DNA of 25,738 bases from positions 1-25,738 of the forward strand of contig CAXXHG010000044.1 in assembly GCA_963666315.2 (NCBI GenBank), written 5' to 3'. The notes beneath the pieces were generated by a model. That model saw only the letters and a list, made by a program, of their open reading frames with translations, had not been told where the DNA came from and did no database searches. Position numbers and translations under genes: made by a program. Every line of letters starts with the position of its first letter. Within the stretch, counting starts at the first letter, position 1. Positions 20,137-22,823 of this stretch are shown piece by piece. This DNA comes from Candidatus Binatia bacterium (lineage in GTDB: Bacteria; Desulfobacterota; Binatia; Bin18).

Positions 20137-20176
20137 GCAGTGTACTATAAAAATTTGCTTCACTAAATCAGAGCTC

Positions 20177-20228
20177 CGCCGGGCCATGAAGTGGCCCGGC
20201 TAGCGTACAGCGCCGGATCAAGCCGGCT
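20177..20228 (-). repeat. 52-nt double-hairpin element, copy A (solo)
   Basis: + strand CGCCGGGCCA-TGAAG-TGGCCCGGCT-AGCGTACAGC-GCCGGA-TCAA-GCCGGCT. Confidence 0.8.
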
Positions 20229-20252
20229 AAGCCCCATTGGAAAGGGGAAGGA

Positions 20253-20922
20253 ATGAGCGTTCAAGAACTCAACCAAGGCGTAATCTTTGACCTGGACGGT
20301 GTTCTCATAGACTCCGAGGGCTTGTACTACCGAGCCTATGGCGCAGTGCTCAAGCCGTATGGCGTCAGCGTGACCCAGCGCGAATACGAAGAGGAGTGGA
20401 TCGCTAAGGGGACCGGACCGGAGTATATCGTTGAAAAACACAATCTGCCGATGGCCCCGGATGAGTTACGCAAGCTGCGCTCGCCCATTTTCCTCAAACT
20501 TTTTAGAAACAGAAGTTACCCTCATGCCGCATGTCGAAACAACCCTCACGCATCTTGCTCCCCACTTCGGCCTGACAGTGGCGACCAACAGCAACCGGAA
20601 TCATTTGGACTTTGTGCTCCAGCGCTTTGGAATAGAGCATTTTTTCCCACAGACTATTGCGCGCCAGGACTACGACAAAGCCAAGCCCGAGCCCGACGCG
20701 TTCTTAGCCGCAGCACAAAAACTAGGACTGGCACGGGACCAGTGTGTTGTTATTGAAGATACGTATCGCGGTGTCACGGCCGCCACCAAAGCCGGCATCG
20801 CCTGCATTGCTGTGCCGAATGAATACACGCTGCACAACGACTTCAGCCAGGCGAAACTGGTCTTGTCCGATCTGGGGGAATTGACGCCTGAGGTTGTGCG
20901 CTCGGTGCTGGAGGGGGATTAG
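20253..20922 (+). pseudogene. HAD-family phosphatase (beta-PGM/CbbY-like) with a +1 frameshift
   Basis: FDLDGVLIDSE is in one frame; VATNS, KPEPD and IEDT are in another. Removing one T from the T5 run at 20500-20504 joins them. Confidence 0.88.
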
Positions 20923-21003
20923 GTGTTGGGGAATGGGGGCTAGGAGTCCGGGTTGGGCGGTGACGTAGCGCTAAGAGTTTATGTAGGAGCTGACTCCCAG
21001 CGC

Positions 21004-21055
21004 CGCCCGGCGATGAAGTCGCCGGGCTACTATACAGCGCCGGCTCAAGCCGGCT
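21004..21055 (-). repeat. 52-nt double-hairpin element, copy B (downstream of tnpA)
   Basis: + strand CGCCCGGCGA-TGAAG-TCGCCGGGCT-ACTATACAGC-GCCGGC-TCAA-GCCGGCT. GTAG sits at the hairpin foot on the minus strand. Confidence 0.85.
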
Positions 21056-21131
21056 TAACAGCCCCGTCTGGTGATGTATCGCCGGGCGAAGTGGGCTGTA
21101 CGGAATATGCTTTGGCACTCGATAAGCCGGC

Positions 21132-21597
21132 TTACTTTGCTGGTTGTTTCGCTCGTTGGGGGGGGGCTGATGCGCTGACTCATGGATAGGCCTGCCCGCG
21201 CTGTCACCATTACGTTCCAAGGTGGCTATTACGGTGCCGTGCGCATGGTGCTCTTGCTGCCGTTCAACATAGGCGACATATCGAGGCAAACGTTTGCTAT
21301 CGAAAGAGAAAACCCCATATTCGTTTTGCCAGGCAAAAGACGGTGACAATTTGTTGAGCCTCGCAGATGTTGCTCCTTTGACCTGGCCGATGAACTTGGC
21401 CACAGCAATTTGAGGAGGAATAGTAGCTACCAAGTGGATGTGGTCAGGAAGACCGTTTAACGCGAAGACTGTGGCACCGAGCCCGATGGCCTTGGTGCGT
21501 ACCAACTCGAAAACGTCCGGTGCAAGATCAGGATGAGCAATGGCTCTCGGTTCTTGGTGGACCAGACAATATGGTAAAAGAGCTGTGAGTAAGGCAT
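21132..21597 (-). mobile_element. tnpA: IS200/IS605-type Y1 HUH transposase (REP-associated), frameshifted
   Basis: MPYSQLFYHIVWSTKNREP / 1-nt shift near 21532 / DHIH (HUH), KGATS, FAWQNEYGVFS, YVERQQEHH (catalytic Tyr). The 3' end is uncertain because of a G9 run at 21158-21166. No tnpB present. Confidence 0.88.
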
Positions 21598-21632
21598 AGC
21601 TGTCTTCGCGTGCAATCCCACCGAGGTCTTGG

Positions 21633-21684
21633 AGCCCTCTTCAGAGGGCGTTGTTTCGTAGCCTGGCGAGTTTATCGCCGGGCG
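21633..21684 (+). repeat. 52-nt double-hairpin element, copy C (upstream of tnpA, inverted relative to B)
   Basis: AGCCCTC-TTCA-GAGGGC-GTTGTTTC-GTAGCCTGGCGA-GTTTA-TCGCCGGGCG. Confidence 0.85.
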
Positions 21685-21796
21685 AAGGTTGTGCCAAGTC
21701 GCGCCGCTTGCGCTGCCCCGGCTATGGTCACTGTGGGAATGGAAGGCTACCGTCATCAGCGCGCCCCTCATTCCGCTGTCCGCCCGGCGATGAAGT

Positions 21797-21907
21797 GACG
21801 CTGTTGCAAAACTCATAACCCGTCTCTTCTGAGCCAAGCAGTAATGGTGCAGAGGCTGCACCCTACGGGAAGAAGAGCGTGAGAGAGAGGCATTGTGCAA
21901 CAGGATC
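21797..21907. mobile_element. 111-bp MITE-like element
   Basis: Imperfect terminal inverted repeats GACGCTGTTGCAAAA / TTGTGCAACAGGATC, flanked by ATGAAGT at 21790-21796 and 21908-21914. Internal REP at 21846-21866. Confidence 0.65.
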
Positions 21908-21957
21908 ATGAAGTTATCCCGTCGCATAACGTGAAGGCTGTTGCTGGAAGCCACCCC

Positions 21958-22077
21958 CACTTGGCGCTAAAGCACCAAGCTCAATATACAAAGGGAGCTA
22001 AAGCCCCCTCAAAGGCAGGGTGGGGAGCCTGGTTTACCGGGCTTGGTAGGCTGGGCCTGAGGCTTTAGCCTCGGGCG
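21958..22077. repeat. Inverted pair of 52-nt double-hairpin elements (copies E and F), REPIN-like
   Basis: E 21958-22009 and F 22026-22077 have the same architecture as A-C, are inverted, and are 16 nt apart. Confidence 0.75.
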
Positions 22078-22098
22078 GACGTGGGGAAAACAGATTGC

Positions 22099-22395
22099 TC
22101 AGTCGGCGAGACGTAGAAGGGCCTTTTCTACAACCGCACTGAGCGTTGTATTCCCGGATTTTGCCAGTTTCTGGGCTTTCTCCCGAACAGAGGCGGAAAC
22201 ATACACCTGAAGGCGTACGTGTTGCTGGGTTTTTCTTCCGGCACCACGGCGTGCGCCACCACGTTGGTTAGAACGGGTGGCCTGAGACGCATCGAAATAG
22301 TCAAGGACATTTTCCCCCGCGTCAAATTTTTCTTCAAGATTTGTTGCGTTTGTCGATTTTGCCGATTTCCTCTTCGTAGAGTGTTCGTTCTTCAT
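22099..22395 (-). CDS. BrnA/CopG-like antitoxin
   Basis: EEKFDAGENVLDYFD, RGGARRGAGRK, C-terminal RHH-like segment. GGAGG RBS; overlaps the brnT 3' end. Confidence 0.75.
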   Translation of the reverse strand: MKNEHSTKRKSAKSTNATNLEEKFDAGENVLDYFDASQATRSNQRGGARRGAGRKTQQHVRLQVYVSASVREKAQKLAKSGNTTLSAVVEKALLRLAD

Positions 22396-22627
22396 ATCGA
22401 GCCCTCCTGACCCTAATAATACGAATGGTCTGTTTGCGTACCGTATATATTGCTGTCCAATACTTATCGCGGATTTTTCCAATGGCGAGTCGGGGAGATT
22501 CGTGCGGGTATTTTGAGGGAAGATCGAGGAGATCTTCATCTTGCCACAATCCTTGAGCCGCCTCGAAACCAATTCCATGTTTTTCTTTATTCGCTACACT
22601 CTTGGTTGCATCCCATTCAAAGGTCAC
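22334..22627 (-). CDS. brnT: BrnT-family ribonuclease toxin
   Basis: FEWDATKSVANKEKHGIGFEAA...IRIIRVRRAR..E...Y. GTG start at 22627. Confidence 0.88.
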   Translation of the reverse strand: MTFEWDATKSVANKEKHGIGFEAAQGLWQDEDLLDLPSKYPHESPRLAIGKIRDKYWTAIYTVRKQTIRIIRVRRARYEERTLYEEEIGKIDKRNKS

Positions 22628-22633
22628 CTGGGC

Positions 22634-22675
22634 ATTATACGATTTTTTGTTTGAAATATGTAGGTGCTTTTCAAA
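22634..22675 (-). promoter_or_regulatory. -10 box and candidate operator of brnTA
   Basis: TATAAT (22639-22634) lies 6 nt before the GTG. Inverted repeat TTTGAAA-N12-TTTCAAA (22650-22675). Confidence 0.55.
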
Positions 22676-22823
22676 TGGAATTTTATGATGCGTTAGCCAT
22701 GGGAGCGAATCCACCCGCTAGGGTAAAGCCGAGAGCGGAAAACGTCTTTCCCCTACGCACGTTTTCCTTTATGCTGGCCCCCGCAACAGCGCCGGGGAGA
22801 GCGCTGTAAAAGGAGGGCGATGC

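Follow-up and report, generated by a model that had tools for sequence, protein, structure and literature searches.

The window analyzed here, a complete contig of 25.7 kb, is part of a 4.99-Mb genome (G000; 47 contigs, 55% G+C) and contains a broken gene, tnpA, for an IS200-like transposase of the Y1 type, together with a group of units of 52 nt, each of which folds into two hairpins (Table 1). Related genomes are labeled G0xx, contigs C, loci with Y1 genes or repeats L0xx, and four public sequencing runs X1 to X4. A repeat search of the window found units A and B as a direct repeat of 66 nt (80% identical) and units B and C as an inverted repeat of 52 nt (79% complementary). The original prediction for this DNA had placed five copies, A, B, C, E and F, in a single family, which holds for only three of them. 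In a search of the window with filters off, a covariance model built from 30 units (R1) united A, B and C at 63-75 bits (family 1), whereas E and F, despite having the same layout, scored weakly and form a separate repeat of 136 nt (family 2).

Read on the strand which carries the tetranucleotide GTAG, a unit consists of AG, a 6-bp stem with a TTNA loop, CG, a linker of about 9-10 nt, GTAG, a 9-bp stem with an (N)TTNA loop and again CG. The two halves follow a common modular plan (AG, then a G+C-rich stem closed by a TTNA loop, then CG), with GTAG standing directly 5′ of the second stem. The layout that had been proposed from the window copies, i.e., a 6-bp hairpin with TTNA loop, a linker, a tetranucleotide and a second hairpin, is found across the family. 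Among 80 distinct units the four letters of the tag before hairpin 2 are conserved to 86% (G), 96% (T), 99% (A) and 99% (G), the fixed positions of both TTNA loops to 97-100%, and A1 to 99%. These letters of loops, tag and A1 are unpaired, and their conservation would be expected of elements recognized by a protein rather than of a bare stem. In classical repetitive extragenic palindromic (REP) elements a G+C-rich hairpin is preceded at a distance of 0-2 nt by a GT[AG]G tetranucleotide, a feature which the units share.

The stems of individual units differ in sequence and remain paired nevertheless. Two alignments were evaluated, one of 30 units made with MAFFT and not fitted to the structure, and one of 80 distinct units from four genomes and six loci of metagenome-assembled genomes (MAGs), which is model-fitted and hence leans towards the structure. 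In the MAFFT alignment 94.4% of the stem cells were paired, compared with 74.9% in shuffles (none of 500 shuffles reached the observed value), both-sided change occurred in nine of the 15 pairs, 73 cells had changed on both sides (22 in shuffles) and the covariation score was 0.49, as against at most 0.115 with slid partners. The corresponding values for the model-fitted alignment were 95.9% versus 74.6%, compensatory change in 11 of 15 pairs, 212 versus 68 cells, and a score of 0.481 versus at most 0.093. Covariation, which had been noticed on the few stems of the window, is thus far above chance in both alignments.

DNA folding predicted both hairpins for A, B, C, E and F, with the GTAG strand being more stable by 3.4-3.9 kcal/mol in C, E and F and both strands being about equal in A and B. 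Stem mismatches on the GTAG strand of the 80 distinct units comprise 30 G.T and 11 A.C. This gives moderate support to the earlier suggestion of a strand-specific fold; the excess, however, lies wholly in hairpin 2 (26 versus 6).

The product of tnpA exhibits the HUH motif DHIH, a WQ motif and the tyrosine motif Y---Q--HH (YVERQQEHH). Its orthologs have a length of 155-175 amino acids and are 53-63% identical, and eight of them share the motifs (DH[IV]H, WQ, YVERQKEHH). The enzyme had been called IS200-like from the window alone, and this assignment is confirmed by its orthologs, three of which obtained 64, 65.7 and 71.2 bits with the IS200/IS605 model NF033573 (cut-off 55). The model for REP-associated tyrosine transposases (RAYTs), NF047646 (cut-off 80), yielded only 21 bits for the window fragment and 18.5 bits for the ortholog at L002, and did not match those at L001 and L005; instead of the Y---NP of RAYTs, the tyrosine motif is Y---Q--HH. 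The nearest solved structures by sequence are the IS200/IS605-family transposases 2ec2, 2xm3 (ISDra2) and 2a6m (ISHp608), and no RAYT structure is among the nine structure matches listed.

DH[IV]H, WQ and Y---Q--HH are the motifs given for TnpA-Y1 subclass 1.2 in Table 1 of Quentin et al. (2018; PMC6006769). In the accessible text of that paper the subclass is low-copy, mostly cyanobacterial and from Bacteroidetes, lacks IS200-type ends, is entered as having no REPs, and is said to be characterized there for the first time "to our knowledge". The window gene and its orthologs carry the motifs of this subclass. Subclass 1.2 also has a conserved C-terminal domain of its own, about 30 amino acids long; the canonical branch ends in a tail FQEE...YDERYLW, whereas the window clade has a different tail without YDERYLW. 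Copies are also few and dissimilar, with a single member of this clade in each of G000, G036 and G044; the individual relatives have 1-8 matches, most of which share 26-35% identity with the query. The idea of tnpA being the only Y1 gene of its genome had to be rejected, as PF01797 also finds two fragments and a class-2.1-like gene at C32:28361-28900. The latter has NHVH and YIELNP motifs, like subclass 2.1 of Quentin, and two-hairpin units were not seen in its immediate flanks.

In the window, codons 1-19 of tnpA (21541-21597) lie in one frame and the remainder (21547 downwards) in another, which has no in-frame stop until 20843 and reads on through the downstream repeats. The same frameshift is present in near-identical contigs of X1, X2 and X3; a variant contig of X4, which differs in 31 other letters within 620 nt, carries an additional letter following position 21533. 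The 3′ part of the gene contains a run of nine G at 21159-21167 (nine C on the gene strand), which is two letters shorter in variant contigs of X3 and X4, and the orthologs of G036 and G044 stop shortly after a similar QPP(P)S stretch. To judge from these sequences, the missing stop codon may result from a length change in the nine-C run.

The association of the units with this TnpA clade, which the original prediction had made its test, is complete among nine orthologous loci, comprising the window, six public MAG loci (53-63% identity), G036 and G044. Units of at least 50 bits adjoin the gene at all nine loci and stand on both sides at eight, the remaining locus (L004) having them upstream only. 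A Y1 gene flanked by repeats which are also dispersed without a gene is the arrangement of a classical REPtron. The details vary among the loci, as the gene lies either inside a doublet of units or is flanked by whole doublets. More distant subclass-1.2-type genes have layout variants of their own, which score more weakly (L008, L027, L028, L031, L032). At L027 (G068:C3:3202700-3206100) a 34%-identical Y1 gene lies within an array of two-hairpin units that extends to both sides with a period of about 285 nt and has TTCAG at the position of GTAG. Among 101 related genomes, units were found in 17 of 18 Y1-positive and in eight of 83 Y1-negative ones, kin not being independent in this comparison.

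Further copies, as had been expected of a REP family, do exist. R1 found 16 credible copies at eight loci of G000, seven of which are gene-less doublets in a head-to-head arrangement with touching hairpin-1 ends; some of them are truncated and one is split by an element resembling a miniature inverted-repeat transposable element (MITE). The covariance-model scan gave matches in 25 of the 101 relatives, including 22 of 54 genomes of the same family and three of 27 of the same genus. All counts per genome are lower bounds, with at least 40-58 units in G028, G036, G038, G041 and G044. In G036 (50 contigs), 36 of the 45 units are paired head to head, with short spacers between them, in 18 doublets, and two flank the gene; as the flanks at 20 loci compared in this genome are unrelated, the repeated unit is taken to end at the outer base of either hairpin-2 stem. 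The doublet of about 105 nt is the commonest form of the family. Since B and C flank tnpA in the relative orientation of a doublet, the doublet resembles unit-gene-unit minus the gene. A single long hairpin, as known from REP doublets forming hairpins (REPINs), was tried as a fold and rejected, as none of the 14 doublet folds (seven doublets, both strands) exhibits it. Most consist of four local hairpins, with C36a and one strand of C35 also showing other pairings.

Table 1. Features in the window and, where a contig is named, elsewhere in its genome G000.
Feature	Position	Strand	Description
Unit A	20177-20228	-	complete 52-nt unit; R1 63.1 bits; CTAG replaces GTAG before hairpin 2
Possible hairpin-1 remnant	20230-20247	+	putative head-to-head partner of A; read by eye, unscored by any model
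HAD hydrolase gene	20253-20922		reads as frameshifted in the window, break near 20500
Unit B	21004-21055	-	complete; downstream of the tnpA 3′ end, hairpin 1 towards the gene; R1 74.6 bits
Unit B′	21036-21088	+	truncated partner re-using the palindromic hairpin 1 of B; R1 17.2 bits, E 9.3e-4
tnpA	21158-21597	-	IS200-like Y1 transposase; Pfam PF01797 51.8 bits; NF033573 41.2 bits on the fragment
Unit C	21633-21684	+	complete; 36 nt upstream of the tnpA start codon, hairpin 1 towards the gene; R1 70.4 bits
5′ arm of a small hairpin-2-like palindrome	21778-21795		partner arm 22063-22080 (inverted pair), separated by 278 nt of inserted repeats
MITE-like insert	21797-21907		terminal inverted repeats of ~15 nt; flanked by duplicated ATGAAGT, the loop region of a hairpin-2-type palindrome
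Family-2 doublet	21950-22085		136 nt; E and F head to head, 16-nt spacer; same two-hairpin layout, other sequence
Unit E	21958-22009	-	full-length R1 match, 12.6 bits, E 0.023
Unit F	22026-22077	+	full-length R1 match, 20.5 bits, E 9e-5
BrnT toxin and weakly matching BrnA-like antitoxin genes	22099-22714		BrnT Pfam 67.9 bits
Family-1 doublets with conserved outer flanks	C21:118495-118720; C36:123648-123869; C36:116218-116370; C21:75942-76077; C46:80186-80560		
Further copies of the MITE-like element	C46:80342-80497; C22:66067-66265; C35:11064-11220		terminal inverted repeats of ~15 nt

Two partial copies had been noted in the window besides the five complete ones. That at 21066-21088 corresponds to hairpin 2 of the truncated unit B′ found by R1. 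The other, at 21781-21796, does not represent a truncated unit but belongs, as the 5′ arm, to a small palindrome, the two arms of which are adjacent, i.e., uninterrupted, in G024. The 136-nt repeat containing E and F has four copies in G000 (blastn, nhmmer) and more in G009, G020 and G024. No partner enzyme was found for this family, the broken tnpA being the only subclass-1.2-type gene in G000. A part of F (22039-22089) is matched by contigs of X1 and X2 with depths of 81 and 38, compared with a depth of 2 for the contig matching the window, and consequently a related repeat is much commoner elsewhere in these samples.

Family-1 doublets are partly embedded in larger repeats. To either side of five of them some 60 nt are conserved as well, resulting in a composite of about 225 nt. 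At C22:65992-66332 these outer flanks are found around a single hairpin-2 palindrome, which is split by an insert carrying a family-2 doublet and having terminal repeats similar to those of the MITE-like element. By their sequences, these nested flanks, doublets and inserts have the appearance of a mosaic like that of bacterial interspersed mosaic elements. The MITE-like element itself lies in the loop of hairpin-2-type palindromes, with a 7-nt duplication of the loop region in the window and at C46 and less clean junctions at C22 and C35; at C46:80298-80505 it splits hairpin 2 of a doublet, with a reverse-complement duplication. Insertion sequences (ISs) that target REPs are known, for example IS1397 and ISKpn1. 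Beside the C35 doublet a GTAG-tagged palindrome with a single hairpin (C35:70434-70464; L018:238-268), unlike the two-hairpin units, has matches of about 30 nt with 87-97% identity on many contigs of G009, G020 and G024, and may represent a second, classical REP family of this genus.

The neighbors of tnpA are a HAD hydrolase gene on one side and a BrnT/BrnA pair on the other, and the window genes have their nearest relatives in MAGs of Anaerolineae. As the single letter at position 20500, within a T/A run, which shifts the frame of the hydrolase gene is absent from contigs of X1, X3 and X4, its break is probably an assembly error rather than the mark of a pseudogene. The BrnT/BrnA pair falls inside a stretch (21179-22710) which G020 lacks at its syntenic site. 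Unit A stands between divergent genes, 25 nt upstream of the hydrolase start. It is not present at the syntenic sites of G024 and G020; the surrounding sequence also differs there, so that neither is a clean empty site. One contig of X4 skips 20154-20276, a span that includes unit A. Stretches of the window for which some runs had no contig were disregarded as evidence.

Comparison with the closest relatives gives some insight into the history of the locus. In G020, which lacks 21179-22710, unit B persists in degenerate form along with a remainder of the 3′ end of tnpA, and G024 lacks 20999-21746 and 21794-22071. The C35 doublet occupies one shared site in G000, G009 and G020, where G024 holds 843 nt of other sequence. 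These remnants, losses and the shared site indicate that the system is older than these species and in decay in G000. With its gene frameshifted, its copies few and diverged, and the gene lost from the closest relatives, the system of the window appears from the sequences to be a decaying relic, and the interest lies in the family. An apparent excision joint (21055 to 21658) was discarded, as it is the paralogous C21 doublet, with loose ends matching the C21 flanks.

On the strand opposite to GTAG the units match the Rfam family RF01687 (Acido-Lenti-1; gathering cut-off 37 bits). In the window the best match is that of unit B (24.8 bits, 21006-21045, + strand), other loci of G000 reach 22 bits and loci of relatives up to 35.6 bits, all of them under the cut-off, and G000 has no match at E ≤ 0.01. 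Sibling copies do pass, for example G044:C32:7109-7157 with 40.2 bits and G030:C82:8461-8509 with 39.1 bits, and siblings with 38-40 bits on RF01687 still obtain 59-61 bits with R1. The layouts agree when the complementary strand is considered, Acido-Lenti-1 being made up of a hairpin of 8-9 bp, CTA(C), a linker measuring about 9 nt, a hairpin of 5-6 bp and CU. Seed rows in the available part of the supplement of Weinberg et al. (PMC2864571) read, reverse-complemented, as an A-GCC-hairpin, linker, GTAG and hairpin. The window units differ in their loops (TTNA) and in their sub-cut-off scores. Judged by sequence, the window family can be regarded as a sister of Acido-Lenti-1 that partly overlaps it. 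As to whether the element corresponds to a class already catalogued, the fold class is indeed catalogued, though as a candidate small RNA (sRNA) in Rfam and not as a REP; the Rfam annotation places the sRNA on the other strand and has no link to a transposase.

Matches above the RF01687 cut-off occur in 15 of the 101 relatives, and at five of 15 Y1 loci scanned in relatives they stand beside canonical subclass-1.2-type genes (L032, L035, L037, L038, L043). This neighborhood extends over several phyla. Among the best 40 of 80 subclass-1.2 loci, from Acidobacteriota, Planctomycetota, Verrucomicrobiota and others, the 700 nt next to the gene contain a match that reaches the cut-off in 26, a weaker one with E ≤ 0.01 in eight, and none in six. 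Typically, either end of the gene has one Acido-Lenti-1 copy at a distance of about 45-100 nt, the two being in inverted orientation. Such stereotyped placement to either side of Y1 genes at 26 of 40 loci suggests that Acido-Lenti-1 is a DNA element recognized by a transposase and annotated on the wrong strand. The units would thereby also suggest what this orphan motif is, and a wrong-strand annotation, if true, would matter for genome annotation. No literature linking Acido-Lenti-1 or subclass 1.2 to REP-like repeats was found in a search that did not extend to subscription journals, nor to the figures in PMC3733652 or the additional files belonging to the two BMC Genomics papers, which could bear on this point.

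We consider it probable (roughly 0.7) that the units are REP-like DNA elements whose hairpins are the cognate substrates of an IS200-like Y1 enzyme of subclass-1.2 type with low copy number, units and enzyme together forming a REPtron-like system in which the gene lies inside or beside doublets. In such a system the hairpins would fold locally on single-stranded DNA of the GTAG strand, and the enzyme would bind them, cut and rejoin near the unit ends and thereby copy or move gene-less doublets in trans. The GTAG before hairpin 2 would take the position of the guide tetranucleotide read by the enzyme, which in classical REPs and IS608 is located directly 5′ of the stem. The mechanisms of IS608 and of the E. 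coli RAYT are the basis for this likening. The original prediction of a bipartite REP class served by an IS200-like TnpA therefore stands as far as the further copies, the gene association and the type of enzyme are concerned; the part that the elements are served by it, i.e., binding, cleavage, mobilization and the strand involved, is inferred from the anatomy of the units and from how related enzymes work.

Several points weigh against this reading. Binding, cutting and transposition of the units by the enzyme are predictions derived from anatomy. The 16 copies of G000 are far below the load of classical REPs, which usually exceeds 100 per genome. Neither covariance model gave a match beside the gene at 11 of the 18 more distant Y1 loci (L027-L044), two of which (L030, L044) have two-hairpin inverted arms of 50-55 nt that were found by repeat search. 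Units in the absence of any Y1 match occur in eight genomes, one of which, G041, has at least 50 of them. This may be due to MAG incompleteness, as MAGs lose repeat-flanked genes, and most homologs in the protein database are on contigs of about 1 kb. Hairpin 1 does not show the excess of G.T over A.C mismatches (4 versus 5). Furthermore, the units of a doublet lie on opposite strands, so that an enzyme acting on a single strand would see one GTAG hairpin per strand, which recalls the standing problem with REPINs. The shared C35 site implies inheritance rather than movement, and a comparison of the A, C21, C35, C36 and C47 loci with relatives yielded no clean pair of a filled and an empty site: homology of the C21 locus to G009, G024 and G020 is confined to the right flank, with contig ends intervening, C47 was matched on one side only, and C36 only via the repeat.

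It is conceivable, although improbable, that the units encode small structured RNAs, wholly or in part, and that their adjacency to Y1 genes is secondary, for example as RNA regulators of the transposase. Acido-Lenti-1 was rated a probable RNA by Weinberg et al. (2010; PMC2864571, available in part), and the one-strand excess of G.T (G.U) mismatches, 30 versus 11, suits RNA as well as single-stranded DNA; the strand modeled by Rfam, however, is opposite to the one favored by G.T. As units are found in both orientations, in abutting doublets with unrelated flanks, half of them would be antisense in any transcript; inverted units on both sides of a gene are the signature of transposase substrates; and even within a single genus the distribution is patchy, with units in three of 27 genomes. 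The hairpins could also be structural elements of the host, such as terminators, mRNA stabilizers or protein-binding sites, or preferred insertion targets into which the Y1 gene lands. They are insertion targets for something, as the MITE-like element sits in hairpin-2 loops in the window and at C46 and in hairpin-2-like palindromes at C22 and C35, and the available text of Di Nocera et al. (PMC3733652) has REPs within small palindromes in another Chloroflexi species. Yet, several copies in G036 have A-runs and not T-runs after hairpin 2, which is unlike intrinsic terminators, each TnpA clade has its own unit variant, which fits co-evolution better than a shared host target, and the distances between gene and units are stereotyped across phyla. 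We regard this explanation as unlikely, too.

A comparably low probability is assigned to the possibility that an ordinary autonomous IS of the IS200/IS605 type has its left and right ends in B and C, with the doublets being deletion derivatives like MITEs or palindrome-associated transposable elements, selfish, short-lived and not REP/RAYT-like. The orthologs' scores on NF033573, the closest structures (2ec2, 2xm3, 2a6m), the doublet's likeness to unit-gene-unit minus the gene and the patchy distribution agree with an IS. However, the ends of IS200/IS605 elements are not inverted repeats, and the window gene is flanked by inverted repeats and is single-copy (tblastn), instead of having several near-identical copies with non-inverted ends. 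The clade is represented once per genome in G000, G036 and G044, orthologs of different MAGs are 53-65% and thus not nearly identical, and gene orientation and unit arrangement vary among orthologous loci. There is also no tnpB beside the gene, its neighbors being the HAD hydrolase and BrnT/BrnA genes.

Going beyond the REPtron-like reading preferred here, Acido-Lenti-1 and its kin might be not sRNAs but a third great class of REP-like elements, i.e., bipartite substrates of subclass-1.2 enzymes in at least four phyla, a proposal which we put forward only tentatively and regard as rather doubtful. As both hairpins share the TTNA loop, one unit may in this case load both DNA-binding sites of the IS200-type TnpA dimer in cis. 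Such a self-contained synaptic substrate, if true, would be mechanistically unlike the ends of IS608 and the single-hairpin REPs of E. coli. Two hairpins with like loops in each unit also offer a new way into the question how HUH enzymes handle inverted REP pairs.

GTAG-tagged REPs with RAYT/TnpA-REP enzymes were reportedly described by Nunvar in 2010 and by Ton-Hoang and Messing in 2012. With these REPtrons, as far as the accessible texts of PMC3733652 and PMC6006769 (class 2) describe them, the window system shares GTAG directly 5′ of a G+C-rich hairpin, dispersed copies mostly in inverted pairs, a flanked low-copy Y1 gene and clade-specific variants. It differs in the enzyme, which has Y---Q--HH and not the Y---NP of class-2 RAYTs and obtains at most 21 bits on NF047646, in units with two hairpins instead of one, and in copies that number tens and not hundreds. 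REPINs (Bertels and Rainey, 2011) have in common with the window family that the inverted doublet predominates and is presumably mobile and that the transposase is single-copy, but the two halves of the window doublet differ in their stems and do not fold into a single long hairpin. Two-palindrome inverted repeats beside tyrosine transposase genes have been known since 2013 from Pseudomonas and others. In P. putida and P. fluorescens, according to the available text of PMC3733652, a degenerate GTAG REP and a second, unrelated stem-loop form inverted repeats around the Y1 gene, with hundreds of copies; those enzymes are of class 2 (subclass 2.5 following the accessible part of Quentin et al.), whereas here both modules share design and loop motif. 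The same text describes GTAG REPs of Chloroflexi, namely GTAG-23 of Thermomicrobium roseum, which is inserted in small palindromes. As Chloroflexi GTAG REPs and the two-stem-loop inverted repeats of Pseudomonas have thus already been described, the novelty of the window family is limited. The enzymes of subclass 1.2 likewise have DH[IV]H, WQ and Y---Q--HH, a low copy number and no IS200-type ends. Unlike in the subclass as published, in the accessible text of PMC6006769, REP-like flanks are present here, in Chloroflexota as well as, in the case of the canonical branch, several further phyla. Quentin et al. (2018), the only systematic Y1 classification, leaves the function of subclass 1.2 blank in that text, and the covarying two-hairpin partner is a candidate for its DNA substrate.

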